Shown piece by piece: positions 2,496-53,901 of a DNA stretch of 64,000 nucleotides (positions within the stretch are counted from its first letter, which is position 1; the number at the start of each line of letters is the position of its first letter). A program made the translations under genes and the position numbers. The DNA is from Promethearchaeota archaeon (GTDB taxonomy: Archaea > Asgardarchaeota > Lokiarchaeia > Sigyniarchaeales > SOKP01): contig JAHPZA010000009.1 of the NCBI GenBank assembly GCA_019058445.1, positions 646,410 through 710,409 on the forward strand, written 5' to 3'. Under the pieces are notes generated by a model that had not been told where the DNA came from, ran no database searches, and saw only the letters and a program-made list of their open reading frames with translations.

Positions 2496-3785
2496 ATGAA
2501 ATGTATAGAGAGATTTAAAGAACTTTGGAAGAGTTATAACGTATTTCGAATTGCTGTGGTAATTCACTTATGTTATTTTATAATCTCACTTATTTGTGTC
2601 CTCACAATATTAAGAGATCAAAATGATTTTCTTATTTATTTTAATGCGGGGAGAATTTTTTACACAAACATCAATGACTTATATAATCAGGAGCACTACA
2701 TTTGGGATTATAGATACCTTCCATTGTCTGCAATGTTTTTTGTTCCATTTTATCTCTTAGGTTTTGACTTGGGATTTATAGTTTTCCATGTATTGAATTT
2801 AATTTTGAATATATTAATCTGTGTGTTGCTTTATAAAATTATCAGATTAGTAAGAAAGGAAGATCATGAGCAAGATGATAAGAGGATTATTTTATACATT
2901 AGCTTGTATTTAGTAGCTGCCCCTCAAATGTTTAATTATATTCTTGGTCAAATCAATTTATACATTACATTTTTTATGCTTATAGCGCTTTATATTTTTT
3001 TAGAATTCGAACAATTAAAATGGCATTTATTGGGAAGTATGGTATTGGGGTTAAGTATTGTGTTAAAACCTACAGCCCTTCTCTTAATTCCTTTTTTAAT
3101 AGTAATTAATTATAATGTATATCACAAAAAACTAATTTTCGATTTTTATAAAAGTGCCATTAGAATAATCGGAGTAATATTTCCAATTTCATTAAATATT
3201 ATCATTTTTCTCTTATATCCTAAATTATGGGATGGCTTCGTTGAGACTAATTTTACAGGGGGAAATCCACTCACCTTAAACTTCTCATTTAGCATCACAA
3301 AGATTATTTTAAATTTTTGTTATATGTATAACATCCCGTTCAATCAAATCTATATTCTATTGATTGTTTTTGGAATATTTGGCATTTTAGGGTATATATT
3401 TTTTCTTTTTGGAAAATATCATGAAAGAGATTCCATTATTTATGGCTTTACATTCGGTTTAGTAATAACTTTATTAGTATATTATGATTCTTGGAATCAT
3501 CATTTGCTAAATCTGACACCCTTATTGATTATTTTGATATTTATTTTGCCCCGTAATTCAGATATTACTGATAAATATATTAAAAAAGGATTTTTCTTCT
3601 TCAGTTTTTTCGATTTAGCATTTATGGGACTATGGTTTCTTACAGTACTTTGGTTCCCCTATAATTTCGCGAGTACAATTTTTCTACTATTAATTTTTTA
3701 TGGTTTAAGCAAACATAGTCTATCTACAGATAATAAGGATTCATTCAATAAACACGTTAAGAAAATCCAAGGAGGGAAAGTTTGA
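2496..3785 (+). CDS. GT-C membrane glycosyltransferase, GT87/DUF2029-like
   Basis: Motifs DFLIYFNAG, YRYLP, GQIN, LKP and W.HH, plus about 11 TM segments. Confidence 0.8.
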   Translation: MKCIERFKELWKSYNVFRIAVVIHLCYFIISLICVLTILRDQNDFLIYFNAGRIFYTNINDLYNQEHYIWDYRYLPLSAMFFVPFYLLGFDLGFIVFHVLNLILNILICVLLYKIIRLVRKEDHEQDDKRIILYISLYLVAAPQMFNYILGQINLYITFFMLIALYIFLEFEQLKWHLLGSMVLGLSIVLKPTALLLIPFLIVINYNVYHKKLIFDFYKSAIRIIGVIFPISLNIIIFLLYPKLWDGFVETNFTGGNPLTLNFSFSITKIILNFCYMYNIPFNQIYILLIVFGIFGILGYIFFLFGKYHERDSIIYGFTFGLVITLLVYYDSWNHHLLNLTPLLIILIFILPRNSDITDKYIKKGFFFFSFFDLAFMGLWFLTVLWFPYNFASTIFLLLIFYGLSKHSLSTDNKDSFNKHVKKIQGGKV

Positions 3786-6247: not shown

Positions 6248-8620
6248 ATGACTGATAATTGCTTATTCTGCGATTCTAAAAGTATTGATTTCAAATGTGA
6301 AAAATGTAAATCAAGTTTTTGTATCAACCATATGGCAACAACCGAGAGTTGGGAATGTAAAAAACATTTTGATTTAAAATACTCTAAAGCAGATGCAGTG
6401 GAAAATAATTATAAATGTTCTGTTGTTGAAAATAGTAGATGTCCTGAGTGTACTTCATTATTGAGGGTTAAACGGCTATCTTCGGGACAATTTTATTTAA
6501 GTTGTACAAAATGTGGATGGAACTCTTATGAAAAAACACCGGGGTTATTTTATCCGTCAAAGGATCAGCTTGCAAGAGAAGCAAGAAGGTATAATCTTAT
6601 TACAGGGTCCTCAATAAAGGATTGTAATAAGAAGCTAAAATATACCACTGGACGTAAAATTTGCCCTAATTGTTTTTTAGAACTTTTAAAACGAGCTGTA
6701 ACCACAAATTTTTCTACGATAATGGACACATTCAACATTACTGCAGAACAAATGATAAAATTAATTACGCAATATATTGAAGAAAATAGGATATATGGAA
6801 TTATAGATCAAAAGAATCGCATGTTCTATTATATTTCGGACGAAATGAGAGAGAAATTAATTTCTAAAATTCAAAATGAAGGGGCAATAAAAGTGGCAGA
6901 TTTAGGTATCATGTTGGATATGAGCTCAGAAATGGCCCTTCAAGTGGTTTATAGGCTTATTAGTCAGCATCAAATACGAGGTTCGTTTTCTAAAGATAAA
7001 AAGAATTATTTTACTCAGAAATATATTACCGATAATTTAATTAAGAATATTACAGAAAAGGGAAGAGTCCCTATTGCTGAATTAGCTAAAAATTTTAACA
7101 TTCCCTCAGAGTTAATTAAAAATTTTTGTGTAAATTTGATGAAAACAAAGATGGTTGATGCTTTTTTTGCTGCGAGAGGGAAAGAAATTGTAACTACAAA
7201 TCAATTACATACTGAGATTAAAAAATATGCAAAAGAGGTCGGGGTTGTTAAGCTCAGCAAACTTGCTGAAAAAGAGAATATCGCTGTAGAATTAGCTAGA
7301 AAAACTCTACATGAAATGATAAAGCAAGGTGTTATACAAGGCATTTTCACACAACGGAGAGAATTTATGACAATGAAACATCTTGAAACAAAAATAAAAG
7401 AACTTGCCAGAGCTTATAGAAATATGAAACTAAGGGAAATATCTAATAGATTAGGGATTACAGAGGCTAGTGTGGAAGAAAATTTGGCTAAGTTAATAGG
7501 ACAGGGAGATATAGATGGATATATAGATTCACAAAAAAAGATGTTTGTAGCATACAGCGTACCTTTAGAGGGAAGAAAGGCTGCTCCAGCAAAAGCCAAA
7601 GTAGCATCAAAGGAGGGAGGAGATAATATAGAAGTATTAAGAGACTATGATTTTGAGGGGGGACAACTTCATTTCAAAGTGGTAGTCAGAAATCATAGTG
7701 AAATGGCAATTAATAATGTTAAAGTTGTGTTAGATGTACCAACTAGTTATAACGTGAAACAACCATTAATCACTATACCTGTCATAGAGTCTAATAACTC
7801 CCGAGGAGTTGATTTTTATTTAGAACCAAAAGAATGTGGAATCTCAAACATCGGCGGGACCGTGATCTATAAAAACGCCCTAGGAGAACAAAATACAATT
7901 CACGTCAGAAAGAAGGAGGTTCAAATCAAGTGTCCCCTCGTTTGTACTTCAATGAGCACAATAGAGGATTGCCAGCTCTCTATTCAGGACCTTCCTAATG
8001 ATGCTCGAGCTTTTTTAATCACTGATTTAGATCCCCGACTCGTATACAGAGCAGCCATTAGGGCTTTAAAATATTTTGAGACTAGCATGGTAACATCTTT
8101 TGAGGGAGGTGATGCTTCAAGCTCATATGAAGCTGAAGCATGGTTCTGCGCAGAAGCAAAAGTTACGGGAGGAAGGATAATTACTAGAGTCTTTATTTCA
8201 GCAACAAATCAGTCATTAGAGGTCAGAGTATGGTGCGCAAATCCGGGACAACTCACAGGATTTTTAGCTAGGGTAATTGAACTGTTAATGGAACAGATTG
8301 AAATTATCAGGAAGATTAAAAGCGAGGAACGCGAGAAAACTATCGATGTGATGGCTGTAACACAGAACTTGGCAGAGATTTCTGATTATTGTATGCTTAG
8401 ATGGAAAGCTCAAAACATTCGAACTAAATTACATGATACCTTCGTCAGATTAAGGAAAATATTAAAAGAAGATAATCCTGTGCTAGGTCGCATCGAATTT
8501 TGGTTAACAAGACTCAATAAATACGAAAAAGATGATAATATTACTGATGATGATGCAGATAAACTTGTAAACGATGTAGAACAATTCCGGAATGTACTTA
8601 CTAGAACTCTAAAAATTTAG
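6248..8620 (+). CDS. Multi-domain protein: Zn fingers, winged-helix (PCI/UFL1-like) repeats, Ig-like appendage/platform domain
   Basis: N-terminal CxxC pairs; about 5 repeats ending in G.(I/F)....(Y/F).T/S; C-terminal beta-sandwich (FKVVVRNHSEMAINNVKVVL) followed by an alpha/beta region and helices. Confidence 0.7.
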   Translation: MTDNCLFCDSKSIDFKCEKCKSSFCINHMATTESWECKKHFDLKYSKADAVENNYKCSVVENSRCPECTSLLRVKRLSSGQFYLSCTKCGWNSYEKTPGLFYPSKDQLAREARRYNLITGSSIKDCNKKLKYTTGRKICPNCFLELLKRAVTTNFSTIMDTFNITAEQMIKLITQYIEENRIYGIIDQKNRMFYYISDEMREKLISKIQNEGAIKVADLGIMLDMSSEMALQVVYRLISQHQIRGSFSKDKKNYFTQKYITDNLIKNITEKGRVPIAELAKNFNIPSELIKNFCVNLMKTKMVDAFFAARGKEIVTTNQLHTEIKKYAKEVGVVKLSKLAEKENIAVELARKTLHEMIKQGVIQGIFTQRREFMTMKHLETKIKELARAYRNMKLREISNRLGITEASVEENLAKLIGQGDIDGYIDSQKKMFVAYSVPLEGRKAAPAKAKVASKEGGDNIEVLRDYDFEGGQLHFKVVVRNHSEMAINNVKVVLDVPTSYNVKQPLITIPVIESNNSRGVDFYLEPKECGISNIGGTVIYKNALGEQNTIHVRKKEVQIKCPLVCTSMSTIEDCQLSIQDLPNDARAFLITDLDPRLVYRAAIRALKYFETSMVTSFEGGDASSSYEAEAWFCAEAKVTGGRIITRVFISATNQSLEVRVWCANPGQLTGFLARVIELLMEQIEIIRKIKSEEREKTIDVMAVTQNLAEISDYCMLRWKAQNIRTKLHDTFVRLRKILKEDNPVLGRIEFWLTRLNKYEKDDNITDDDADKLVNDVEQFRNVLTRTLKI

Positions 8621-8699
8621 GGGTCAACCACAAATAAATATATATAATGTGTTAAACATTATATTGATTAACAAAGAGTAAAAAGAGTGAAAATAAAAC

Positions 8700-9116
8700 A
8701 TGCCAATAATAAGCATCTCGATTAGTGAAAGCCTCAAGAAATTTATAAATAAGTTAGTATCTAGTAGACAATATGAAAACCGATCAAAAATTATTAGAGA
8801 TGCGCTATTACGGTTAATGCAAAATCCCGAAATTTCCAATATTACTGATTCATCTGGAGAAGTATTTCCAATTGAAAATAAGAATATTATTGGAAATATG
8901 ATTGTGGTTTTACCTAACGACTCCAATGTCCTGAAGAAATTAAACAGAATAGAATTTAAATATAAAGATTATATAGTAAGTAAAAACCAACATTTTGCTA
9001 AAAATCTTCAATTATATATGGTTTTTGAGGGGTCAATCGAAGATTTTCATAAAATTGTTGTAGAAATAAATTCGATAAAAGAAGTTACTAATTTTCGATA
9101 CTTAATCGATAATTAA
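8700..9116 (+). CDS. NikR-like regulator (ribbon-helix-helix plus ACT-like domain)
   Basis: MPIISISI...YENRSKIIRDAL is an RHH signature; the C-terminus is ACT-sized. Confidence 0.75.
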   Translation: MPIISISISESLKKFINKLVSSRQYENRSKIIRDALLRLMQNPEISNITDSSGEVFPIENKNIIGNMIVVLPNDSNVLKKLNRIEFKYKDYIVSKNQHFAKNLQLYMVFEGSIEDFHKIVVEINSIKEVTNFRYLIDN

Positions 9117-9203
9117 AAGAACCTCTTCTTTTGTATGTTGTTATTATTTATTTTAAATCACAAATTCTAAGAAGATAATAATTAATATTTTGGTGATAAT
9201 CAC

Positions 9204-9554
9204 TTGGGTAAAAATAAATATGGTAAGGGTTATCAGAAGAAAGGTAAAGACGCTGGATCGAAAGGAGGAGCTCCAATCCGTAGTGGAAAAATTAAGGCTA
9301 GCCATATATTAGTTGAAAAACTAAGTAAGGCTCAAGAAATATATGAAGATTTGCAAGCTGGTGAAGATTTTCAAAAATTAGCACAAAAATATTCTACATG
9401 TCCCAGTAAGAACAAGGGAGGAAATTTAGGAGAATTTCCAAAAGGACAGATGGTTACAGAATTTTGGAATGCGTGTGTTAAATTGGGAATTGGACAGATT
9501 TCGCAGCCAGTAAAAACTCAATTTGGATATCATATCATTAAAAGAACTGGTTGA
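9204..9554 (+). CDS. ppiC: Parvulin-type peptidyl-prolyl isomerase
   Basis: Motifs ASHILV, AQKYSTCPS..KGGNLG.F..GQMV and PVKTQFGYHII. Confidence 0.95.
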   Translation: MGKNKYGKGYQKKGKDAGSKGGAPIRSGKIKASHILVEKLSKAQEIYEDLQAGEDFQKLAQKYSTCPSKNKGGNLGEFPKGQMVTEFWNACVKLGIGQISQPVKTQFGYHIIKRTG

Positions 9555-9572
9555 ATTCCAAAGAAAAAATAA

Positions 9573-9665
9573 TAGCCGCGCACGGATTCGAACCGTGGTC
9601 TAGGGGTTTCTCCCAGCATAATGCTGTTCAGGGCCCCCGATGCTTGACCGCTACACCACGCGGCT
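9573..9665 (-). tRNA. tRNA-Gln(CUG) with a 20-nt BHB intron at 37/38 (intron 9608-9627)
   Basis: Acceptor stem AGCCGCG/CGCGGCT (A1-U72, typical of archaeal Gln), D arm GTGT/GCAT, anticodon stem GGGGG/CCCCT, T arm CACGG-TTCGAAT-CCGTG; intron hairpin CAGCA-TTA-TGCTG. Confidence 0.9.
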
Positions 9666-10181
9666 TTTCTAATAAAAATGTTAAATATTAATAATTTAAA
9701 TTTTCTAAAAAATTTTTCTTTTATTTGTTTATTGAATAAATAGTAAATAAGACTATAATTTATTCCAATTAATCATACTAAAACTATTTTTATATTAATA
9801 AAATTACAGATAGATTTTTATTCTAATAAAATCATATATTTACTTGGATTACATATAAAAGAGAAGATACTTAAAAAAAATATTTTGGCTAATAAAACTT
9901 TTTGTAAAACCCCTAGCCGAAATCAAAACCCCGTGAAGCTGTGGCCCATAATGCTATGGCTCGGGAAACTGAAAAAAAAAAACTTATTATATATCTTCCG
10001 ATTATATGTAATCCACTCTTTTCATAGAATTCTTTTAATATATATACTTCAATTGGTTTTCTCATATCAAACGTAAAGTCCTAATTTAAGCTTTTTTATT
10101 TCCTATTTAAATTAATATATTATCATAATATAGCTATTTAAACGGATTTGATTTTAAAAATTAATTACCTAAATCATTATA

Positions 10182-36739: not shown

Positions 36740-37627
36740 TTAAAATAAAGTCAGAATAAAATCAGCCAAAATGTTCTCAATATTCTTTATTCCCCTTAAC
36801 CCGGGAAAATCATTTAAATCAACTAAATAAAGCTTGTTGTCTTTAACACTTTTAATTAAATCAAATCCAAAAATTTTAAGCTTTAATTCTCTTGAAAGAA
36901 TTTTTGCTAAAATTTTCATCTCTTTGGGAACCATAAACTCATCCCTAGAAATTGTATCGACATCTATTGCGTCTGGACTATCTCTCATGTAAATATAAAT
37001 TGGATTTTCTCTCTTAATTCCAAAGATTTTGTCTCCTACAACGTATACTTTACGGTCAATACCATCGCATTCAATGAATTTTTGGACATATACATCGTAA
37101 TATAAAAAGTTTGAATACATTTTGCAGAATTTATCCACTTCATCAATTTCTCTGACTAAAAAATTAAATCTCATATATTTATCGTGCTGAAAATGGCTTT
37201 TAATCACAATTGGTAATTTTTTTACTGCCCATTCTTTAAATCTATCAACATCTGATAAGTTTTGAGTCCATGACTTAGGCAATGAAATATTCGCTAAAAT
37301 CTCTGAATTATCCTGAAGAATCTTTCGAAAAGCGTGATCTAAGGCAACCTTGTTACGCGTTAATAGGACAGTATCAACATCATGCAAAGTGGGGATATCA
37401 TGAAGTTTTGCGTAATGTAATAAATCTATTGAACATTCACTTCTTACTTTTACAATGAGCATATCAACCTTATTGAGTAGGTTTGATGTATTTTCTAAAT
37501 CAAGAAAATCTTTAGTTGGATCATGTAAGATTAAGTTAGCATCTTTAGTTTTCTTTTTTAGAATAGGTATAACTGTTTTTATTACATCATGCTCTAATTT
37601 CGCAGAAAAAACTACTTTTTTAACCAT
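36740..37627 (-). CDS. ATP-grasp inositol phosphate kinase-like protein (ITPK1 family) A
   Basis: VQKFI...DRKVYVVG and IFGFDLI...YLVDLNDFPG match the ITPK1 pattern FGxD...DINxFPG rather than the RimK EVN motif. Confidence 0.75.
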   Translation of the reverse strand: MVKKVVFSAKLEHDVIKTVIPILKKKTKDANLILHDPTKDFLDLENTSNLLNKVDMLIVKVRSECSIDLLHYAKLHDIPTLHDVDTVLLTRNKVALDHAFRKILQDNSEILANISLPKSWTQNLSDVDRFKEWAVKKLPIVIKSHFQHDKYMRFNFLVREIDEVDKFCKMYSNFLYYDVYVQKFIECDGIDRKVYVVGDKIFGIKRENPIYIYMRDSPDAIDVDTISRDEFMVPKEMKILAKILSRELKLKIFGFDLIKSVKDNKLYLVDLNDFPGLRGIKNIENILADFILTLF

Positions 37628-42534: not shown

Positions 42535-45342
42535 TTATCTTCCTCTAATACCGTCAATTAACATCATTATTAAATCGCCAATACTCAAGGGGAGTCCCCC
42601 TCCGTGTTCTTCTTCTTGCGCATTAGGATCAAAGTTTTCGTTTACTTTTCTTACCCATTCTAAATAAGATAAGTTCATTAAATCATCAATTTCGTATTCT
42701 CTTTTAATAGATTCTGCTATTTCTCCATAATGAGAGAGATTATTTACTAAATTCATTTTATCTTTTTTTCCAATAATAACTAATGGTGGTAATGAAAAAT
42801 GATCTGCAAGAGACTGTACAGATTCAGGAGGTTTATCTCCTTTATAGGGTGCGATGATTAAATCAAAATTCAAAGTTTTTCCATTATAAGTTGGTGCTGT
42901 TGGTTGGTCTTGATGAGTTAAGAATTTTTCTGCTATTTTATAGGCACGACCTGAGCCTGTTGTCCAATAATGTAATATTTTTCCATAATAATTTCCAAAG
43001 GGATTAATTCGAACTTGTTGACCCTTTTTATATCCATCTCCAAACCCTTTATCTTTAATCTTTAAAGGACTAAAAGCAAAGTTAGATGCTTTTAACGAAT
43101 TGAATCCTACTAATATACCATTTTTTCTGTCTGAAACAGCCATCCATCCATCAGAGATATTACTTACAAGGTTATCTATATTTTTATTCCGAGAATCGAC
43201 TTCCCGTATATCAAGATCGAAATAAGATACTCTACCTAAAAAATTTCTTTTCCATATTCTTAATGGTTCATTATTGCCGATAAGATTAGGTTTAATTTCA
43301 CATGGGATAACTTCTTGCCATCTATTATCATATTTCTCAGCAACATAAGCATGACCATCTTCAATAGTACTTTCACCTATGATGTCGCACAACTTCATTT
43401 TAACATCCACGAACATCGCTGGAACCCCTGAATATAGGATAAGTATTTTTTCTGATTGGACGTCATATCCCCTTAAAATTTCAAATTTACTATAAATTTT
43501 AATTGATGCTGAAAATCCATCACTTCCATCTCTCAAAATCTCAATCCTATTACGGTTTGAATGATATCTCTTTCCATTTTTTGATTCTCCGAAGGTCACA
43601 GCAGATTCTAAAAAATTTGGGCATGCTAAATCTACTCCATTAAAATTAAATGAGGTTATTAGACCATTATCATTCAAAATTAATTCTATTATTTCATTTT
43701 GCAGAGATCGAATTGTTGCTTTGATTTTTCCGTTATTCTTTAGATTGTTAGCTGAATTATTTAATGATAATTTAGAAAGATAGATCTTTTCTGATTCGAA
43801 TACTTCTTTTGGAACTATAGCTTCAAGAAAAAGCCCATGGTTCGAATTGTCATCATATAATCCGTATTTAAAATTTCTTAAATTCAAACCTTTATCATTA
43901 TTTAATAATTCATTTGATAGTTCCTGAGGGAGTTTTGTTTTTATAAGAACTGATGAATTAATCTGACTTTTTTCTTGTTCTGTGATGCCCCTGTTTAGTA
44001 TAGGGCAAATTATCATATTATAATCATTATTTTCAATCCTATTGGAAATATATTTAAAAGATTCATCGATTGCTAAATTCACAGCATTTTCAGCAGCATT
44101 ATGAGCTTTTAAAGCGTAAGCCATTCCGGTTTTGATTCTAGTTGGATGCATAAAGGGTACAGATAAACCAAAATTTGTAGTAGAAGCGAGTAATATTTTA
44201 TTTTTAATATATGATTCCGAAGAATCCTTTTCATTGCGAATTAGATTATTAATGTTAGCTTTTTTATTTTCTACCATATTTTGAGAAATTAAAGTATCTG
44301 AAATGCACTTTTGCCACCTTGCTCTTTGTCCGATTGTCCATAATTTAGTATTATCATATTTCTGAGCCCAATTGTAAAATCCATTATTAAGCCCATCAGC
44401 AGCATCAGGATACAATGTTGTCTCGCCATGAATTTTGAGTTTGGGGATAACATCTAATAAGTTTGCGAATTCTACGTAATCTAGTAAATCAACCGCTTCA
44501 GCAAATTCAATTAAACCTCTTGTTTTAGGCATCCATTGTAAAAACTTAGGTAGTTTTTGTGGTAACCACAAATCAACATCCATATCAAAATTGAAGAATA
44601 ATAGGGCATGTCCTGTGATTTCACCTTTTTCTTGCATTTTTCTTATCAATTTAAACCATCTTTTTATCGAAAAATAGTCCACTACATCTCCAAAAGCATA
44701 CATTGGAATCATTATCATCGAGGCATCGGAAATTGATGAATTGAATTTTACTAAACCATATCTCTGATTAGTATTTAACCGCGGATTTAAAAAGGGTCTT
44801 CCGACGTCAAAAGGATACACACAATAATAAATGCAAATTCCCTCTACACCAATTTTATTATAAAGTTCAATCATTCCTTGAGTAAACATCGTTTCTTGAG
44901 TACGGGCGTAAGGTGCAATCCTTCCTGGAAATAACTGTTTCAAACCAATTCCCATTTCATTCTCTAAAAACCATTCATGATCGCGAACAAATTCTTCACT
45001 ATCAAGCATTGGTTTCGCAACATTGCCCCAAGATCCAATTAAAACTTCATCTTTTCCTTTTTTACATCGCTCAATTACTCGTTCCAATACATCTTGCTGG
45101 TACTCTTGTTGAAGTTGTATAGACCAAAAAGTATCACCGTAATCCCAAGTAATTTTCATATCTTTAAAAGAAAATCCCTTTTCTTCAATTTCATCTAATT
45201 TATCAAGAATAGCTCTCATAGTCGTAAGATCAGTTCCGAAGCCATCCCTCCCTCTTGAATCTCCCCGATAAGAATGATAATAATTAATATGGGGAGAGAT
45301 CACAAAAAATATCTTTTTTTCTTTTAAATCCAATTTATTCAT
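42535..45342 (-). CDS. Large GH38/GH57-like glycoside hydrolase
   Basis: N-terminal SPHINYYHS barrel start, beta-rich C-terminal region, 935 aa, no signal peptide. Confidence 0.55.
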   Translation of the reverse strand: MNKLDLKEKKIFFVISPHINYYHSYRGDSRGRDGFGTDLTTMRAILDKLDEIEEKGFSFKDMKITWDYGDTFWSIQLQQEYQQDVLERVIERCKKGKDEVLIGSWGNVAKPMLDSEEFVRDHEWFLENEMGIGLKQLFPGRIAPYARTQETMFTQGMIELYNKIGVEGICIYYCVYPFDVGRPFLNPRLNTNQRYGLVKFNSSISDASMIMIPMYAFGDVVDYFSIKRWFKLIRKMQEKGEITGHALLFFNFDMDVDLWLPQKLPKFLQWMPKTRGLIEFAEAVDLLDYVEFANLLDVIPKLKIHGETTLYPDAADGLNNGFYNWAQKYDNTKLWTIGQRARWQKCISDTLISQNMVENKKANINNLIRNEKDSSESYIKNKILLASTTNFGLSVPFMHPTRIKTGMAYALKAHNAAENAVNLAIDESFKYISNRIENNDYNMIICPILNRGITEQEKSQINSSVLIKTKLPQELSNELLNNDKGLNLRNFKYGLYDDNSNHGLFLEAIVPKEVFESEKIYLSKLSLNNSANNLKNNGKIKATIRSLQNEIIELILNDNGLITSFNFNGVDLACPNFLESAVTFGESKNGKRYHSNRNRIEILRDGSDGFSASIKIYSKFEILRGYDVQSEKILILYSGVPAMFVDVKMKLCDIIGESTIEDGHAYVAEKYDNRWQEVIPCEIKPNLIGNNEPLRIWKRNFLGRVSYFDLDIREVDSRNKNIDNLVSNISDGWMAVSDRKNGILVGFNSLKASNFAFSPLKIKDKGFGDGYKKGQQVRINPFGNYYGKILHYWTTGSGRAYKIAEKFLTHQDQPTAPTYNGKTLNFDLIIAPYKGDKPPESVQSLADHFSLPPLVIIGKKDKMNLVNNLSHYGEIAESIKREYEIDDLMNLSYLEWVRKVNENFDPNAQEEEHGGGLPLSIGDLIMMLIDGIRGR

Positions 45343-45543: not shown

Positions 45544-46305
45544 ATGACAAACTCGAATAACTATGTACTAATTACAGGTGCGAGTAGTGGTATCGGAAGA
45601 GCGACCGTAGAATTTTTAGCTTCAAAGGAATTTTATGTGTATGCTGGTGCCCGAAAACAAGAAGATATCAGAGAATTAAATAAGCTAGGAAATGTGACTG
45701 CTCTTGAAATCGATGTTACAAAGCAAGATACAATTGAAAATGCAGTTAAATATATTAAAAACCAAAAAACAGGTTTAAATGCTCTCATCAATAATGCTGG
45801 TATTGCTCGTGCAGGTCCTTTGATGGAATTGCCAGTAAAAGAGTTATACGAGCAGTTTGATGTTAATCTATTTGGAATACATCGAATAACTAGAATGGTG
45901 TTTCCCTTGTTATTAGAATCAAAAGGAAAAATAGTTATGATGAGCAGTGATTCTGGATTCTTTGCATCTCCCTTTTTTGGACCTTATTGCTCCAGTAAAT
46001 TTGCTTTAGAGGGATACTCTGATTCACTTAGAAGAGAGTTGATTATTTTGGGCGTTAAAATTGTGATAATTGAACCTGGAAGGGTAAATACATCGATATG
46101 GGAAAAGGGCGAAGTTTTACTTAATTCCCTTTTAGCAAGACTAAAGGGGTCCATTTTTGAAAAGATTGCAAAGGAAGTTGGAGAATATGCTATTAAAAAA
46201 GGTAAAACTGAAAGCTTGGATCCTATAGAAATTGCTAAGCTAATATATAAAATACTAAATCTTAAAGAGCCAAAAACGAGATATTTAACAGCACCGGATA
46301 AATAA
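45544..46305 (+). CDS. SDR oxidoreductase; probably prematurely stopped, with the frame continuing to 46383
   Basis: Motifs TGASSGIG, NNAG, YCSSK and IEPG; the frame after the TAA reads RYKLIKILPDKTIDK. Confidence 0.88.
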   Translation: MTNSNNYVLITGASSGIGRATVEFLASKEFYVYAGARKQEDIRELNKLGNVTALEIDVTKQDTIENAVKYIKNQKTGLNALINNAGIARAGPLMELPVKELYEQFDVNLFGIHRITRMVFPLLLESKGKIVMMSSDSGFFASPFFGPYCSSKFALEGYSDSLRRELIILGVKIVIIEPGRVNTSIWEKGEVLLNSLLARLKGSIFEKIAKEVGEYAIKKGKTESLDPIEIAKLIYKILNLKEPKTRYLTAPDK

Positions 46306-46570
46306 AGGTATAAACTTATAAAAATATTACCGGATAAAACAATTGATAAAAGGCTTGAAAAAGAATTTAAAAAAATAAAATAATTTTATTTGAAGATACT
46401 AACAAGATATTGAAAGGGTTCTTATTTTTGTTATTTCATTAAGTTTAAGATTTCGAAATTACCAATCCAATTTAAAATGGTTTAAATATTATAATAAAAT
46501 ATTACACTTTATCATGGCTAACAAGAGATGATTATTTTCTATCATTTCTTAATAAAGGAAGGTAAAAAAT

Positions 46571-47623
46571 ATGCCAAATAGGATAAAATTAGCAATAGTG
46601 GGAATAGGTAATGCTGCTTCGGCTCTGATTCAAGGCATTGAGTATTATAAAGATCGTTCCTTTAATAAGGGTTTGTTATATCCTACATTTGCAGGATATC
46701 ATATAACTGATATTGAGATCTCTGCTGCATTCGATATTTCTGCTAATAAAGTTGGAATGGCTCTTAATGAAGCATTAAAATCCAATGAATTACAAATTAT
46801 TGTAGACTTAAGTAATCAAGATAAAATTGTCTCAATGGGGGTAGTTAAAGATGGAATAATTAAAGAGACAATTGGAAAGATTAACCCTTCAAATGCTCCA
46901 TCTATTAATATAGCAGATAAATTAAGGGATTCGGCTACTGAGATTGTTCTTTGCCTATTACCATCTGGTGCAGATGAAGCAGTGGAATTCTATGCAAAAC
47001 AAGCGTTAGATGCCGGTTGTGCTTTTATTAATGCTACTCCAACTTCAATTGCGACAAACAAAACTTTTGCTAAAAAATATCAAGATGCTGGGCTCCCTCT
47101 AATTGGAGACGATCTTCAAGATCAATTTGGAGCAACAATTGTTCACAAGCTTCTTTTACAACAGATGATAGATCAAGGAGTTGAAATTAAAGAGAGTTAT
47201 GCCTTAGATGTTGGGGGAGGATTAGAGTCCTTGAATACAATCTATCGAACGCGTCATGTAAAACGGGAAATTAAAAGTAAATCTGTAGCTGCTGCCCTCA
47301 AAATAAATGCTCCTATTGTAGCAGGAACTTCTGATTATGTTCCCCATTTAGGAAATAGTAGGAATTCCATGTTATGGTTAGTAGGACAAGGTTTTTTAGG
47401 GTCAGAAATAATAATGGATATTAAAATCCAGACGCAAGACGGGCCTAACGGAGGCGCAATTTTGATTGACGTAATTAGAGCCACCAAAATCGCCTTACAA
47501 CAAGGAGCATCGGGGTCGATAAATGAGATATCAAGTTATGGATTCAAAAATCCCCCCAGACTGATAAGTAACCCAAAAAAAGCGGGAGAGGACTTAGCAA
47601 AATTCATTATGGGGATGATGTAA
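46571..47623 (+). CDS. Myo-inositol-1-phosphate synthase paralogue 1 (degenerate active site)
   Basis: GIGNAASALIQG, AFD and LPSG are present, but GDDLQ, LDVGGGLES and DGPNGGA replace the canonical motifs. Confidence 0.85.
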   Translation: MPNRIKLAIVGIGNAASALIQGIEYYKDRSFNKGLLYPTFAGYHITDIEISAAFDISANKVGMALNEALKSNELQIIVDLSNQDKIVSMGVVKDGIIKETIGKINPSNAPSINIADKLRDSATEIVLCLLPSGADEAVEFYAKQALDAGCAFINATPTSIATNKTFAKKYQDAGLPLIGDDLQDQFGATIVHKLLLQQMIDQGVEIKESYALDVGGGLESLNTIYRTRHVKREIKSKSVAAALKINAPIVAGTSDYVPHLGNSRNSMLWLVGQGFLGSEIIMDIKIQTQDGPNGGAILIDVIRATKIALQQGASGSINEISSYGFKNPPRLISNPKKAGEDLAKFIMGMM

Positions 47624-47628
47624 TAAAG

Positions 47629-48789
47629 ATGAGCAAAACGGATAATAGAGAAATACGGGTCGCTATCGCAGGATTAGGTAACGTGGCGGCAGCAATAGTA
47701 ATGGGTATTGAATACTATAAGAATGTAAAGCAAGAAGAAAAATATCAAGCAGGATTGATTAATGCTTCTGTAGGAGGATATTTACCCTCGGATATTAAGA
47801 TCGTAGCAGCATTCGATATAGCAACAACTAAAATTGGAAAAGATATTTCGGAAGCTATTTATGCTGAGCCTAATATGTGCCATCCGATTATACTTCCGGA
47901 AAATATGCCAAAATCAAATGCATTATGTTACCCAGGTCCTATTTCGGATGGGTGTTATCAAACTAAAGACTCAAAGGGAAAAATAATTTTTGACACCTAT
48001 AACTATTTTAAAGCTTATAATGAAAAAGATGTGAAACCAAGTAATATAACTCAAGTATTACTAGACAATAAAGCACAAATTTTAGTTAATCTACTTCCAG
48101 TTGGAAGTTATCAGGCTTCACGAATTTATGCTCAAGCAGCTTTGGATGCAAATTGTGCATTAATTAATGGAATTCCTGAATTTATTGTCTCAGAGCAAGT
48201 CGAAGGCGATAGAGACTGGGTTGCTGAATTCATAAAAAAAGGTCTCCCCTGTGCGGGAGATGATATTAAATCTCAAGTTGGAGCAACAATCATACATAGA
48301 ACACTTGCGAAATTATTCTTAGATCGAGGAGTTATTGTTAATGATACTTATCAATTGAATATAGGGGGAAATGGCGATTTCTATAATATGAAATCAGAAG
48401 AACGCCTAACCACAAAACGTAAATCAAAAACATCAGCGGTTACAAGTGTTCTTCCGTATGGAGATAAAGTTGGTTGTAGAATCGGTCCAAGTGATTATGT
48501 GCCATTTTTAGGAGATAAAAAAATCTGTTATATTAGAATTAATGGAACTACATTTGGAGGGTTACCACTTGTTTGTGATATGAAATTACGTGTTGAAGAT
48601 TCTCCAAATTCAGCGGGATTAATAATTGATCTTATTCGTCAAACAAGGTTAGCCATAGATAGGGGGATTGTCGGACGTTTGGACAGTATTAGCTCGTTTA
48701 GTTTCAAACATCCACATATTCAACCTTCTTCAGATTTTGAAGCAAAAAAGTGGGTACAAGAATATATTGAGGGTAAAAGAGAGAGATAA
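47629..48789 (+). CDS. ino1: Myo-inositol-1-phosphate synthase (canonical)
   Basis: Motifs GDDIKSQVGAT, LNIGGNGDF.NM, KRKSKT, GPSDY...DKK, DSPNSAG and FKHP. Confidence 0.93.
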   Translation: MSKTDNREIRVAIAGLGNVAAAIVMGIEYYKNVKQEEKYQAGLINASVGGYLPSDIKIVAAFDIATTKIGKDISEAIYAEPNMCHPIILPENMPKSNALCYPGPISDGCYQTKDSKGKIIFDTYNYFKAYNEKDVKPSNITQVLLDNKAQILVNLLPVGSYQASRIYAQAALDANCALINGIPEFIVSEQVEGDRDWVAEFIKKGLPCAGDDIKSQVGATIIHRTLAKLFLDRGVIVNDTYQLNIGGNGDFYNMKSEERLTTKRKSKTSAVTSVLPYGDKVGCRIGPSDYVPFLGDKKICYIRINGTTFGGLPLVCDMKLRVEDSPNSAGLIIDLIRQTRLAIDRGIVGRLDSISSFSFKHPHIQPSSDFEAKKWVQEYIEGKRER

Positions 48790-48954
48790 AAAAAAATTTT
48801 TATATCCTATTGATATTTCATAATTTTTTATGAGAGTTCAAATCACCAAAAAATGAAGTAAGATCTTTATCGGATTCTATATATTATATAGATTAAAAGC
48901 AAGAGCATTTTTTTAAAATGATTTAAATAGGATTATATAATTATACCTATTATC

Positions 48955-50046
48955 ATGGCTAATACAATTAATGTTGCCTTAATTGGACTAGGAGATGTAG
49001 CCTCTGCATTGGTACAAGGTGTTTCCAATTATAAAAAAAATCCGGATAAGATAATTGGTTTACTACCAGAAATTACCCAATATAGTGTTAATGATATTAA
49101 TTTTGTTGTTGGTTTTGAAGTGAATTCAAATAAAATAGGAAAAGATATGAGCGAAGCTATTTTTGCTGAACCTAATTGTAATATGAAATTATACCCTCCT
49201 GAGTTCCTAAATGCCCCAATTTTAAGAGGCCCGATCTTAGATGGATTAGACAGTAATATTAAGGATATTGTCCCGGTCTCGAATGGAGAAGAAGCTGTTA
49301 GCGTATCTAAAGAGATGAAAGATCGATTAGTCGATGTCGCAGTAATTCTACTTCCAACAGGAGCACATAAGGCAGTTAAGTTTTATGCCATGGCTGCTCT
49401 AGAAGCTGGAGCATGTGTTATTTGTGGTATGCCCTCCCATGTTGCAAAAAATCCAGAGATTGTTAAAAAAGCCGAAGAATTAAAATTACCATTAATAGGA
49501 GATGATGTAAAGTCCCAAATAGGTGCTACTATAATTCATAGATCTTTAGCAAATCTTTTTCCAATGAGAGGAGCTATATTGGACCGCACAATCCAGCTCG
49601 ATTGGGGAGGCTGTTCCGATTTTCTAAATCTCTTAACCCCTCAAGCAGATGGAAAGTTAGTGTATGAAGAAGGGAAGCGTCAATCCAAAACAGAGTCTGT
49701 GGTGGCTAAGCTTCAAAATAAAGATACTGTAGAATGCCAAATTTCGGCAGTAGATTATATTCCTTTCTTAAAAAACCAAAAGGAAGCATATATGAGACTT
49801 GAGGGTCGTATTTTTGGAGGTGCTCCTGTTAGAGTGGATATTACAATGTTTGTACAAGACGGTAATAATTCTGCTGGCATTATCGCGGACTGCATTCGCA
49901 TATCTAAGATCGCAAGAGATAGAAAAATAGGCGGAATTCTGTCTTCAGCATGTTCATTTTTTATGAAACATCCTCCAGAACAATTAGAAGATTATATAGC
50001 CAAAAAACATTTGGTAGAATTTATAGAAGGTAATAGAGAAAGATAA
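48955..50046 (+). CDS. Myo-inositol-1-phosphate synthase paralogue 3 (variant)
   Basis: GDDVKSQIGAT, KRQSKT and MKHPP are retained; GLGDVA, LDWGGCSDF and DGNNSAG are variant. Confidence 0.88.
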   Translation: MANTINVALIGLGDVASALVQGVSNYKKNPDKIIGLLPEITQYSVNDINFVVGFEVNSNKIGKDMSEAIFAEPNCNMKLYPPEFLNAPILRGPILDGLDSNIKDIVPVSNGEEAVSVSKEMKDRLVDVAVILLPTGAHKAVKFYAMAALEAGACVICGMPSHVAKNPEIVKKAEELKLPLIGDDVKSQIGATIIHRSLANLFPMRGAILDRTIQLDWGGCSDFLNLLTPQADGKLVYEEGKRQSKTESVVAKLQNKDTVECQISAVDYIPFLKNQKEAYMRLEGRIFGGAPVRVDITMFVQDGNNSAGIIADCIRISKIARDRKIGGILSSACSFFMKHPPEQLEDYIAKKHLVEFIEGNRER

Positions 50047-50089: not shown

Positions 50090-51058
50090 TTATGTCATGT
50101 ACGTTCTTGTCTTTAATCTCATAGGGATTCTTTCATCTATCTTTTGTCTTGCTATCAAAAATTCATAAATATAGTCAGAGATAAGACTTATCGCTTCAGG
50201 AATATTTCTAAAACTGGGGAAGTCATTAATATCTATAATATAAGGAACACCTTCCTCACTAAAGATGTAATCAATTCCAAAAACAGACATACCAAACTTC
50301 TTACTTAATCTCAACACTTTTCTTTTCAATTCTTTATCTATAGGTACTCTTATATGTACCATTTCATATGGTGTGAGGGGTCTCTGCTTTATTCTGTTAT
50401 GGGCAGTTATAGATACCACCCATCGGTCTATTACATATACTTTATATACGATATCTATTTTGCCCAAATAATCTTGGAAGAATAACTCATTTTCATCATA
50501 ATTTTTAACCAATTCAATGAAATCATTTATATTTCTTGCAATACCAATAACTCGATCTTCTTTAGGTATATCAGGTGCGTTGTGAATATCATGTTTAATA
50601 ATTATTTTTACTCCATTACTGCAGGCTAAATAAGCGTCTTTGAGAGAAAAATATGATTTTGGAATAGGTATTTTTTTATATTTTTCCTCTATACGCTTAA
50701 AAGTTGCTTTTCTGCTCTCACAGGTCTGAACTGCTTTTAGGCTATTGAGAAGAGGTATTTTTGGGGCATAGATTTTAATAGTATCATATATAATCTGATT
50801 TTCCTTTTCAGAAAGTAATTTAACAATGATTAATGAAATTGGATACTTTTTTATTTTTTTTCGAAAATATTTAATATCAAAAATTCCTTTTTTATTGCCC
50901 TTATGAGGTATGAGATTTACAATTTTGATATTATAGTTAACTTTTGCAAATTTGATGATCTTCTCAAAAATTTCAAGATCCCTATTGCAAATGGCTCCAA
51001 TATAGATTTTTTTTATAGACATAAAAAAAAATAAGGGAGTTTGATACCTTAAAAACAA
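50090..51058 (-). CDS. ITPK1-like ATP-grasp kinase B
   Basis: FQDYL...YKVYVI and VFGIDYI...YIIDINDFPS. Confidence 0.78.
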   Translation of the reverse strand: MFLRYQTPLFFFMSIKKIYIGAICNRDLEIFEKIIKFAKVNYNIKIVNLIPHKGNKKGIFDIKYFRKKIKKYPISLIIVKLLSEKENQIIYDTIKIYAPKIPLLNSLKAVQTCESRKATFKRIEEKYKKIPIPKSYFSLKDAYLACSNGVKIIIKHDIHNAPDIPKEDRVIGIARNINDFIELVKNYDENELFFQDYLGKIDIVYKVYVIDRWVVSITAHNRIKQRPLTPYEMVHIRVPIDKELKRKVLRLSKKFGMSVFGIDYIFSEEGVPYIIDINDFPSFRNIPEAISLISDYIYEFLIARQKIDERIPMRLKTRTYMT

Positions 51059-51229: not shown

Positions 51230-52066
51230 ATGAGTAAAGTTAAGATTGGAATAATTATTGATAGATATCATCTAGAGCAAAAAGCAACAGAATTTTTAAA
51301 GTACTTAAAATTGGTTGCAAATGTTTCCTTGTATATTGAAGAATCATATCTTTTAAAATCTTTTGACTCCACTTTTGATGAGGATTTATTTTTTGTCAAG
51401 GGTAAGGGAGATTTAATATTAGCCCTTGTTAAACTCATTGAAAAAGAGACGTCAATACCGGTAATTAATTCCTATAAAGGAATTTGGAATGCTATACATA
51501 GGTTCATGAATAGCGTTTTATTAAAAAAAGCAGGAATCCCTGTGCCTGATTTTTCGTTGATTCCTAGTGAATATCCACCACCCTTTGAATCATATATTAT
51601 AAAAAATATTATTGATCAAAAAAATTACAAATTCAAACCGAATATTGAAAATATAAATGGAGCTATAAAAGTAAGCGATGAGAGGGCTTTAACGGAGATG
51701 TATAATGGATTTTATGGAGACATGGGGAATTATCACTATCTCTACTATCAAAAATTTATTAAAAGCGAATGGGAGTATAAGATCTACATTATAGGGGAAG
51801 ATATTTACTTTTACAAGCAAATACCAGTGCTTGTTAATCCTAATAAAATGGAGTCAAGGCGAAAGATTGCCGAAATTCCAGAATTAAAAGAATTGGCTTT
51901 TAAGGCAGTTAAGACAACCGGATTAAAAATTACATCAATAGATTTTCTTCAAAATAAAAATGGACAGTTCTTCTTATCGGATATTAATTGTACTCCAAAT
52001 TTCAATTATATTAAGAATGGTCCAAAAATTGTTGGAGAATATTTAATAGAGCAAGCTAAAAAATGA
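51230..52066 (+). CDS. ITPK1-like ATP-grasp kinase C
   Basis: YQKFI..EYKIYIIG and SIDFL...SDINCTPNF. Confidence 0.7.
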   Translation: MSKVKIGIIIDRYHLEQKATEFLKYLKLVANVSLYIEESYLLKSFDSTFDEDLFFVKGKGDLILALVKLIEKETSIPVINSYKGIWNAIHRFMNSVLLKKAGIPVPDFSLIPSEYPPPFESYIIKNIIDQKNYKFKPNIENINGAIKVSDERALTEMYNGFYGDMGNYHYLYYQKFIKSEWEYKIYIIGEDIYFYKQIPVLVNPNKMESRRKIAEIPELKELAFKAVKTTGLKITSIDFLQNKNGQFFLSDINCTPNFNYIKNGPKIVGEYLIEQAKK

Positions 52067-52075
52067 TTTAAAGAA

Positions 52076-52891
52076 ATGACTATGAAGATTGGGATACTCT
52101 CAAAAAAAACTACTGGCATGACGGGTTTGATGAGAGAATTTTTTGAAAATGCGGGACACACTGTGAAAATATATACATTGAAAGATTTATGCATAAATGA
52201 AGCACTGTTTGAAAATGATTTTTATGTACTTAAATCAAAAAAAATAGTGTATATCTATGCTGGTCATTACTTAGAGAAAAATAATATTCCCGTAATTCCA
52301 AATCCAAATACCATTTATAATAATAAAAATCGTATAGAGGCACATTATTTAATTAAGCAAACAGGCTTAAGGCTGCCCGAATTTTATTATGGAAAAGTCC
52401 AAACTTTAAAAGATCAACTTAAAGCAGATGATTTTCCTTTAATTTTAAAACCAATTATGGGTTCTGGGAGTAGAGGCATAAAAAAAGTAATTTCATTTGA
52501 CGATTTAGAGCCGAAAAATGATCAACCATTATACTTAGAAAAATATATAGAAGGAACTCATTATTTGGTGTATTTTATTGAAAATCAGGTATGCATTTTA
52601 GAAAAACCTCCGCTATCAAATGAACATGTAGAAATGAAGAAAATTTTACTGAATGACAATAATGAAGATATCCAAGAGGTTGTAATCAAATGGAAATCTT
52701 ATTATAATCTACAATTTGGCCATTTAGATATTGTAAGAGAAGACAATACCAATAAAATTTATCTTGTAGATCCGGGTTCTTTTCCCGAATTCTCAAATTG
52801 GTGGTATGATGAGAATCCCACACCTAAAATCTGTAATCTTATATTAAAAAGATATGAAGATTTAAAACATAATAATCATAAAAATATCTGA
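52076..52891 (+). CDS. ATP-grasp protein D (ITPK1/RimK-like, variant)
   Basis: FPLILKP..GSGSRG, EKYI and GHLDIV...LVDPGSFP. Confidence 0.7.
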   Translation: MTMKIGILSKKTTGMTGLMREFFENAGHTVKIYTLKDLCINEALFENDFYVLKSKKIVYIYAGHYLEKNNIPVIPNPNTIYNNKNRIEAHYLIKQTGLRLPEFYYGKVQTLKDQLKADDFPLILKPIMGSGSRGIKKVISFDDLEPKNDQPLYLEKYIEGTHYLVYFIENQVCILEKPPLSNEHVEMKKILLNDNNEDIQEVVIKWKSYYNLQFGHLDIVREDNTNKIYLVDPGSFPEFSNWWYDENPTPKICNLILKRYEDLKHNNHKNI

Positions 52892-52920: not shown

Positions 52921-53901
52921 TTGAATGACCCAGATAAGTTACAGGATTTAGAATTTAAGTCCATAACTGATATGTTTGGAAAGCAAAAAGTTAGACTTTA
53001 TAAAATAAAACATATTATCTTCGACTTTGGAGGGGTAATGATAGAAAAAACATTTGTTTTAAAGAATCTGTTTGACATTATTGAAGCTGACTTAAAGCTT
53101 TCAATACCTCGTACAGAAGATTCCTATTTTAGAAAACTACGAAGGCAAGTGAGCTCTGGAATCATATCTTCTCGAGAATTTTTAGAAAAAATGCTAGAAA
53201 AATATTATTATCCATTTTTGAAAAATGATGGGGCATTACCGGCAAAAAGGGCAAATGTCGATTATTATTTAGAGCTCTGGTTCCAGATTTATACAGTAGT
53301 TACAAAATTTTCAAAAGATATGGCCGAAATAATTGAAAGATTTCATCAGGCCGGTTATATTGTAAGTTTAATGTCCAATACATACGATATTCATGCAAGA
53401 TCAAATGAATTGAGGGGTTTTTATGATGCTTTTGATAATGTATATCTCTCAAGTGAAATAGGGCTTATTAAACCCAATATCGAGAAATACAAATATGTTT
53501 TATCAAAATTAAATACGGAACCTAAAAAATGTATATTTATTGATGATAAGCTTGTAAATCTTATCCCAGCACGTGAGTTAGGAATCATTGTTATTAGATT
53601 TGAGTCATTAGAAAAATTTAAAAAGCAATTGAACCAAATAGGGATAAAAAAACTCAGACCTAATCTTAGGCATGAAATAAAAAAAAAGTATAAAAAATAT
53701 AAAAAGGTTAAAAAGTCTTATAAAAAAGCGAAACGAGCATACAAAAAGGCTAGGAAAGAATTCTTAAAAAAGAAGAGAAAATCCTCCAAAAGACATAGAG
53801 AATTTCGAAGAAGATATGCCGAATATAGGAAGAAAAAACAGGAATATAAAGAAGAAAAAAAGAAAAAGAAGGAATTAATCTCCAAAGTTAGTATTGCTTA
53901 A
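52921..53901 (+). CDS. HAD-superfamily phosphatase with a Lys/Arg-rich C-terminal tail
   Basis: FDFGGV, MSN, KP and FIDD; the last ~85 aa are highly basic. Confidence 0.88.
   Translation: MNDPDKLQDLEFKSITDMFGKQKVRLYKIKHIIFDFGGVMIEKTFVLKNLFDIIEADLKLSIPRTEDSYFRKLRRQVSSGIISSREFLEKMLEKYYYPFLKNDGALPAKRANVDYYLELWFQIYTVVTKFSKDMAEIIERFHQAGYIVSLMSNTYDIHARSNELRGFYDAFDNVYLSSEIGLIKPNIEKYKYVLSKLNTEPKKCIFIDDKLVNLIPARELGIIVIRFESLEKFKKQLNQIGIKKLRPNLRHEIKKKYKKYKKVKKSYKKAKRAYKKARKEFLKKKRKSSKRHREFRRRYAEYRKKKQEYKEEKKKKKELISKVSIA

Follow-up and report, generated by a model that had tools for sequence, protein, structure and literature searches.

Three genes of the myo-inositol phosphate synthase (MIPS) family lie in a row on one strand of the 64-kb stretch of Asgard archaeal DNA analyzed here (the window; source genome 4.6 Mb, about 30% G+C). 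These genes, called copy 1, copy 2 and copy 3 in the order of their positions, belong to three ancient MIPS subfamilies and are not diverged tandem copies. Our best explanation, which as a whole we would give an even chance of being correct, is that two units of different history have been brought together. Copy 3 would be the resident synthase of a family-wide cluster with four ITPK-like kinases and a HAD phosphatase, while copies 1 and 2 would form a phylum-wide operon joining a canonical MIPS (copy 2) to a paralogue with changed chemistry (copy 1), representative of a subfamily that we call clade A.

Inositol phosphates are a defining feature of signaling in eukaryotes, and no known organisms are more closely related to the eukaryotic ancestor than the Asgard archaea. 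The sole published account of the kinase cluster treats its synthase genes as interchangeable; here, the cluster appears to have a dedicated synthase subfamily of its own. Further, most Asgard genomes encode a canonical MIPS together with a second, conserved paralogue whose active site has been rebuilt. The trio itself is a lineage-specific juxtaposition of genes from a known family, and the new element is the phylum-wide clade A paralogue. If clade A does make or epimerize another cyclitol phosphate, pre-eukaryotic inositol chemistry would be wider than assumed. If it is instead a regulatory subunit, it would represent the first heteromeric MIPS, as far as a literature search shows.

Three ancient MIPS subfamilies at one locus

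The first-pass annotation of this DNA had described three MIPS-family genes side by side, which is borne out by the coordinates of the open reading frames and by matches to Pfam PF01658 (Inos-1-P_synth; 58.8, 110.7 and 74.3 bits for copies 1, 2 and 3, all above the cut-off of 27). All three can be aligned from end to end to the actinobacterial INO1 model and over their full length to Mycobacterium tuberculosis Ino1 (PDB ID: 1GR0; E = 1.7e-67, 8.9e-83 and 5e-82, respectively). None of the three qualifies as an actinobacterial equivalog; scores against TIGR03450, the mycothiol-type INO1 equivalog model, are 251.8, 327.6 and 298.3 bits and all fall below its cut-off of 638. Pairwise identity among the three proteins is 33-36%, and a genome search identified them as the only MIPS-family genes of the source genome.

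Phylogenetic analysis separated the three copies clearly. A FastTree phylogeny of 145 sequences recovered clade A, a clade named LDWGG after a motif of copy 3 and the group of copy 2 with supports of 99, 99 and 100, respectively. An IQ-TREE analysis of 54 sequences under LG+C20 placed copy 1 in clade A (100), copy 3 in the LDWGG clade (99) and copy 2 in a group of its own (100) within the canonical clade. About 120 orthologues are listed for each copy, with identities of 60-90% for copy 1, 60-90% for copy 2 and 77-94% for copy 3. The motif set of each copy is invariant or nearly so among them, and the motif differences between copies are thus not due to chance. Pairwise ratios of nonsynonymous to synonymous substitution rates (dN/dS) against the close relatives L016 and L017 are 0.05-0.11 for copy 1, 0.04-0.12 for copy 2 and 0.05 for copy 3. 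These values exclude neutral decay, and all three genes are under purifying selection.

The term tandem paralogues used at first pass, if taken to mean diverged duplicates, did not withstand this analysis. A recent triplication, after which copies 1 and 3 diverged neutrally or under relaxed constraint, could be argued from the tandem arrangement on one strand. It is ruled out by the trees and selection estimates and retains next to no probability: each copy is much closer to proteins encoded in other genomes (60-94% identity) than to its own neighbors, the three fall into distinct and well-supported clades, and dN/dS is far from neutral throughout (0.04-0.12). The concern that copies 1 and 3 might be unconserved is likewise answered by these rates, with more than 100 orthologues of each carrying the altered motifs.

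Scanning a library of 1.84 billion proteins with copy 1 returned distant proteins containing GDDL(Q/M/I/L)(D/S)Q and LD(V/I)GG(G/S)xE(S/T/A), and others containing the LDWGG of copy 3. Judged by the names of cluster members, nearly all of which are blank, clade A is also present in metagenome-assembled genomes (MAGs) of Thermoproteota and Nitrososphaerota. A search of the ESM Atlas yielded generic MIPS clusters only, and no description of clade A, the LDWGG type or a heteromeric MIPS was found in the literature search.

Copy 3 and the four-kinase cluster

A MIPS gene flanked by four ITPK-like ATP-grasp genes, the arrangement that defines the Asgard IPS/ITPK-like cluster, is found in the window. 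In Lokiarchaeum, four LcIK genes were reported to flank two inositol phosphate synthase (IPS) genes, and one of the kinases restores inositol hexakisphosphate (IP6) synthesis in yeast; the IPS genes were taken as plain synthases and not distinguished from each other (Desfougeres et al. 2019, PMC6900528). The window shares with that system the Asgard host and a MIPS flanked by four ITPK1-like kinase genes, but has three synthase genes of three subfamilies instead of two IPS genes, and in relatives of the window the LDWGG type stands in the cluster alone.

Our phylum sample comprised 151 genomes, 25 of them from the window genome's own family (f1). Orthologues of copy 3 (74-81% identity) are confined to f1, where 16 of the 25 genomes encode one. 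In 13 of these 16 it is the single MIPS-family match and consequently the only candidate synthase. At nine f1 loci (L085-L092 and L094), copy 3 is found beside the kinase genes IK_b, IK_c and IK_d without copy 1 or copy 2; IK_a lies on the other side of copy 3 in eight of them (the contig of L094 ends first), and the HAD phosphatase gene then follows in seven. The conserved order at these loci begins with a low-molecular-weight phosphatase, BacA and IK_a, runs through a variable stretch (major facilitator superfamily transporter, a 935-aa protein and a zinc-dependent alcohol dehydrogenase) to copy 3, and continues with IK_b, IK_c, IK_d, HAD, FKBP/HHH and a radical-SAM gene. The counterpart in the window spans positions 33689-59703. 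Because copy 3 is the only synthase in the cluster at all nine loci, the four kinases belong with copy 3. They do not go with copies 1 and 2, which look inserted here and sit elsewhere in relatives.

The motifs of copy 3 are GDDVKSQ, LDWGGCSDF and DGNNSAG, with all four catalytic lysines and the aspartate of xDF retained. It differs from M. tuberculosis Ino1 in its LDWGG(C/S)SDF, NxK and DGNN segments. In the N-terminal NAD motif GLGDVA (canonical GxGN), asparagine is replaced by aspartate in 21/21 copy 3 orthologues, compared with asparagine in 92% of canonical sequences. At first pass LDWGGCSDF, DGNNSAG and the retained lysines had been read correctly, but GLGDVA had been put in place of GDDIKSQ; the segment at that place reads GDDVKSQ, as is normal, and GLGDVA serves in dinucleotide binding at the N-terminus. 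The LDWGG clade shares N213D, loss of N217, D262N and S291G with copy 1 and keeps K183, D219, F220 and the lysine equivalent to K306 of the Archaeoglobus fulgidus enzyme. Copy 3 probably functions like any ordinary MIPS, as an inositol-3-phosphate (Ins3P) synthase feeding the ITPK-like kinases, and since it is probably active, the N213D/D262N combination looks like a compensated swap and not a loss. It would convert glucose-6-phosphate to Ins3P for all four kinases. The earlier proposal of a pseudo-enzyme or neofunctionalized enzyme probably does not suit a protein that is the sole MIPS of 13 related genomes and the sole MIPS within the cluster at nine loci.

A phylum-wide pair of clade A and canonical MIPS genes

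Copy 2 was called canonical at first pass, and this holds: GDDIKSQ, LNIGGNGDF, GDKK and DSPNSAG are all present, every catalytic motif is shared with M. tuberculosis Ino1 (EC 5.5.1.4), and the protein most likely serves as a second Ins3P synthase of canonical type. Canonical MIPS genes like copy 2 were detected in 115/151 genomes of the phylum sample (E <= 1e-100). They are rare in f1, being found in 4/25 genomes only (G144, G104, G129 and G147), all of which also have copy 1 or a copy 1-like gene. Across the phylum sample, clade A is nearly always accompanied by a canonical MIPS.

The gap of 5 nt reported between copies 1 and 2 is correct and indicates a tightly coupled operon. Copy 1 is immediately followed by copy 2 in 22 of 37 related loci, and the spacing in 16 other loci ranges from -14 to +60 nt, mostly within 16 nt. 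Gene order varies between families. The clade A gene precedes the adjoining canonical gene in f1, the canonical gene comes first in f5 (13/13), f14 (4/4), f24 and f25, and the two are unlinked in f2, f7, f8, f12 and f19. The cultured Lokiarchaea L. ossiferum and P. syntrophicum, as well as Harpocratesius, each encode two genes, namely a canonical MIPS and, unlinked to it, a copy 1 orthologue fused to a helix-turn-helix (HTH) domain; no copy 3 is found in these genomes. The conserved adjacency of copy 1 and canonical MIPS supports a functional link, and the near-constant company of the latter suggests that copy 1 either uses Ins3P as its substrate or feeds a second cyclitol into this same pathway.

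Probable insertion of the copy 1-copy 2 pair

Copies 1 and 2 are bracketed by a 51-nt direct repeat (repeat family D4) with arms that are 80% identical and 2441 nt apart. In the right arm, a TATA-like box, AAAATGATTTAAATA, lies about 40 nt before the ATGGCTAA start of copy 3, and this box is also present upstream of copy 3 in clusters that contain copy 3 only. The left arm repeats ATGGCTAA, which is followed by a stop after five codons (MANKR), and is located 50 nt before the start of copy 1. The 12-mer TATCATGGCTAA occurs in the window at the two arm sites only, with 0.03 occurrences expected.

The pair looks inserted because it lies between two copies of the copy 3 promoter and start. Both genes were probably inserted together in front of copy 3, with duplication of its promoter, and would now be read from the duplicate. 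Under such an insertion, and going by this one repeat, all three copies would be under the same kind of promoter. A genome of the same genus carries the pair at another locus, and in two of the nine genomes with the copy 3 cluster the pair is found on other contigs with different gene surroundings. ITPK-like kinases lie beside the pair only in the nearest relatives of the window, L016 and L017.

A third near-copy of the promoter box, AAAATGATTTAAAGA, is present at 52060-52074 of the window, at the end of IK_c and just before the start of IK_d at 52076. Synonymous divergence between the window and L016 (copy 3 there at 2557-3648) is about 1.7 for copy 3 and only 0.4-0.5 for copies 1 and 2; perhaps these neighboring genes differ in history because the pair was recently exchanged or underwent gene conversion.

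The active site of copy 1

Copy 1 carries the motifs GDDLQDQ, LDVGGGLES, GNSRNS and DGPNGGA, and the patterns GDDLQDQ, LDVGGGxES, NxRN and DGPNGG are invariant in its roughly 120 listed orthologues. Comparison of 42 clade A with 74 canonical sequences identified ten class-specific changes: K183Q/M/L/I, N213D (100%), N217G/S, D219E (100%), F220S/T/A, S234I/V, P253T/S, D262N, K264R (98%) and S291G. These ten positions, with K264R and D219E among the changes, also set copy 1 apart from M. tuberculosis Ino1, and the residues that it has there are as well conserved as those they replace. The family invariants G11, G13, N14, D55, N154, D180, D181, K231, K235, D290 and K326 are kept in copy 1, and its substitutions form a coherent set, most of them conservative. 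The canonical motifs GDDxKSQ, LNxGGNxDF and DSPNSAG are all found in copy 2; copy 3 retains GDDVKSQ only and copy 1 none unchanged. The catalytic lysines of MIPS are K274, K278, K306 and K367 in A. fulgidus, corresponding to K369, K373, K412 and K489 in yeast (PMC11348189, PMC8287684). All four are present in copies 2 and 3 but not in copy 1, which according to alignment mapping keeps K231, K235 and K326, the equivalents of A. fulgidus K274, K278 and K367.

An AlphaFold2 (AF2) model of copy 1 built from a 148-sequence alignment reached a mean predicted local distance difference test (pLDDT) score of 95.8 and a predicted template modeling (pTM) score of 0.94; an earlier model from 25 close orthologues (pLDDT 60.7, catalytic domain below 50) was not used. 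The top Foldseek match of the model is 1GR0 with template modeling (TM) scores of 0.85/0.91, followed by Ari2 (TM 0.80), and the next matches are all MIPS. Copy 1 is therefore predicted to keep the NAD-binding MIPS fold; for copies 2 and 3, the fold was judged by full-length sequence alignment to 1GR0 only. The losses of a lysine, an asparagine and an aspartate with retention of the NAD fold, as described for copy 1 at first pass, stand and can be given as seven exact replacements: K183Q, N213D, N217G, D219E, D262N, K264R and S291G.

Copy 1 is functional, though probably not in the standard reaction. All three copies might still be redundant Ins3P synthases, that is, isozymes differing in regulation or kinetics, as they all score as MIPS family and retain the GDD aspartates, D290 and three to four of the catalytic lysines. 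We regard this as improbable, given that copy 1 departs from the 74 canonical sequences at ten conserved active-site positions and that conservation of the pair across the phylum argues for non-redundant roles.

A precedent for changed chemistry within the family is Ari2 (PDB ID: 6K96), the five-membered cyclitol phosphate synthase of the aristeromycin pathway, which follows the same NAD-dependent logic with fructose-6-phosphate as its substrate (PMC9092360). Ari2 resembles copy 1 in lacking the lysine of GDDxK (GDDLASH in Ari2), but keeps LNLGGNEDF and the lysine of DxK and belongs to an actinobacterial antibiotic cluster. Assignment of copy 1 to the Ari2 type was rejected: Ari2-like sequences (GDDLAS[QH], LNLGGN[EA]DF; P0462, P0502 and P0503) are located in the canonical part of the FastTree phylogeny, away from clade A, and the motifs of copy 1 differ.

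Enzyme, subunit or sensor

Our hypothesis is that copy 1 is catalytically active and NAD-dependent but that its chemistry has changed. This is preferred over a non-catalytic partner, with belief and doubt about evenly balanced, because copy 1 keeps the cofactor site and most catalytic invariants, because its substitutions are invariant among orthologues and mostly conservative, and because Ari2 provides a precedent. Copy 1 could act on Ins3P made by copy 2, for example by an oxidation and re-reduction that epimerizes it to another inositol phosphate, or it could cyclize a different sugar phosphate. Of the choice offered at first pass, a pseudo-enzyme subunit and a neofunctionalized enzyme both stand for copy 1 but probably not for copy 3; unconserved, neutrally evolving copies 1 and 3 are rejected.

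A hetero-oligomeric MIPS, in which copy 1 is a non-catalytic, prozyme-like subunit of a mixed tetramer with copy 2 and tunes its activity or stability, seems to us possible but rather unlikely. The pair is conserved and tight (-14 to +16 nt in most loci), copies 1 and 2 co-occur perfectly within f1, and clade A is nearly always found with a canonical MIPS; a catalytic lysine is replaced by arginine in copy 1, K183, N217 and D219 are altered, and MIPS is a tetramer (PMC11348189). Trypanosomatid deoxyhypusine synthase, a NAD enzyme activated by a dead paralogue, offers a precedent, working as a tetramer of an impaired and an inactive paralogue (PMC3663545). It is an analogy from an unrelated family, and for copies 1 and 2 the observations cover adjacency and co-occurrence of the genes. 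Retention of the NAD motifs and most catalytic invariants, together with invariance of the altered residues, would be unusual for a dead subunit, and the two genes are unlinked in cultured Lokiarchaea as well as in f7, f8, f12 and f19.

In Lokiarchaea, many copy 1 orthologues are 393-412 aa long and have an HTH domain of about 45 aa at their N-terminus. The fusion is real since some of the fused orthologues have no internal methionine. Copy 1 might accordingly be a ligand sensor instead of an enzyme, with the HTH-fused Lokiarchaeal form repressing its own gene and the HTH-less form of the window being a remnant sensor. Each of 12 HTH-fused genes has at least two copies of AGT(A/C)AC in its upstream region, against one at most for each of 14 HTH-less genes, that of the window included. 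The pattern was derived on the same sequences in which it was counted, yet the contrast is plain. Several observations make a sensor a distant prospect. HTH-less forms are the rule outside Lokiarchaeia and are equally conserved, the copy in the window has no HTH, and a tblastn search of the source genome for a split or remnant HTH gave no match below E = 0.1. The unlinked canonical MIPS genes of L. ossiferum, MK-D1 and Harpocratesius have no such repeats, searched for as AGTAACA, in their upstream regions. Finally, enzyme-repressor fusions such as BirA and PutA are still enzymes.

The AGT(A/C)AC repeats (L018-L026, L029, L035, L037, L042 and L047) are direct in most loci and inverted in L037 and L042. 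At the HTH-less copy 1 genes of L027, L032, L039 and L046, an element CTCTTAAGATA(A/G)AATAAT lies about 60-20 nt upstream, duplicated in L027, and may be another operator or promoter element.

Several observations weigh against an active copy 1 and two units of different history. The arginine of copy 1 at position 264 occupies the place of the catalytic lysine K306 of A. fulgidus and K412 of yeast, and alignment mapping puts an aspartate at the position of yeast Ser323 (PMC8287684); each of these replacements might eliminate catalysis instead of changing its course. One intact and one altered paralogue in a conserved, tight pair would also be expected of a catalytic subunit and its non-catalytic partner, and in some lineages the HTH fusions suggest that clade A acts as a sensor or regulator. 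The neighbors of unlinked clade A genes give no consistent substrate clue, no neighbor being conserved across families. As to the two units, the insertion is read from one 51-nt repeat of 80% identity in AT-rich DNA, and the assignment of the kinases to copy 3 alone from gene order only.

A broader proposal, which we advance tentatively and think somewhat likelier to fail than to hold, is that clade A represents a new activity of the MIPS superfamily, either a NAD-dependent cyclitol-phosphate epimerase or an alternative sugar-phosphate cyclase. It would supply a second, non-myo cyclitol phosphate in most Asgard and some TACK archaea, with its own gene repressed via the fused HTH in Lokiarchaeia.

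Features of the locus and neighboring genes

The coordinates of the three copies, the repeat arms and the surrounding genes are collected in Table 1. A short-chain dehydrogenase gene like the one preceding the left repeat arm was not found at the corresponding place beside the copy 1-copy 2 pair or copy 3 in L017 and L085-L094. The 935-aa protein of the variable stretch (42535-45342 in the window) has no Pfam match, yet it is kept beside copy 3 in several genomes.

Table 1 Features of the MIPS locus and kinase cluster in the window
Feature	Position	Strand	Remarks
IK_a, clearest ITPK-like kinase	36740..37627	-	PF05770, E = 4.7e-14; far end of cluster
Short-chain dehydrogenase	45544..46305	+	PF00106, E = 5e-44; just upstream of left repeat
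Left repeat arm	46471..46521	+	TATA-like box and ATGGCTAA start of copy 3, duplicated; upstream of copy 1
Copy 1	46571..47623	+	350 aa; clade A MIPS-like protein; no HTH
Spacer between copies 1 and 2	47624..47628	+	5 nt (sequence coordinates)
Copy 2	47629..48789	+	386 aa; canonical bacterial/archaeal-type MIPS, catalytic motifs all intact
Right repeat arm	48912..48962	+	Copy 3's own promoter region and start codon
Copy 3	48955..50046	+	363 aa; LDWGG-type MIPS
IK_b, ITPK-like ATP-grasp	50090..51058	-	PF05770, E = 1.9e-5; adjoins copy 3
IK_c, ATP-grasp	51230..52066	+	Weak ATP-grasp Pfam matches
IK_d, ATP-grasp	52076..52891	+	Weak ATP-grasp Pfam matches
HAD phosphatase	52921..53901	+	PF00702, E = 2.3e-14; end of kinase operon; kept in most f1 clusters

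The surroundings of clade A genes differ between lineages. In a genome of the same genus (L030 and L096), the copy 1-copy 2 pair is flanked by genes for a TagF-like CDP-glycerol glycerophosphotransferase (814 aa, E = 2.6e-157) and a MobA-like nucleotidyltransferase (7395-9839 and 12246-13064 in L030). These neighbors hint at CDP-activation and polymerization of a cyclitol or polyol phosphate. Unlinked clade A genes of f7 (L065-L070) adjoin a trio of SCP2, FAD-oxidase and CCG Fe-S genes along with VTT/DedA and CpXC genes, and those of f8 and f19 have a UbiA prenyltransferase as neighbor; taken as a loose hint, the neighbors in these three families point to membrane lipids. In f12, a RimK-like ATP-grasp gene and a flavoprotein gene are located nearby.

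The taxon labels given by submitters clash within one GTDB family, with Hod-, Thor- and Loki- names all in use, and are not relied on here. L030, from a 'Hodarchaeota' MAG, belongs to the same GTDB genus as the source genome, and L039, from a 'Thorarchaeota' MAG, has nearly the same copy 3 (compared with G144 and G155).

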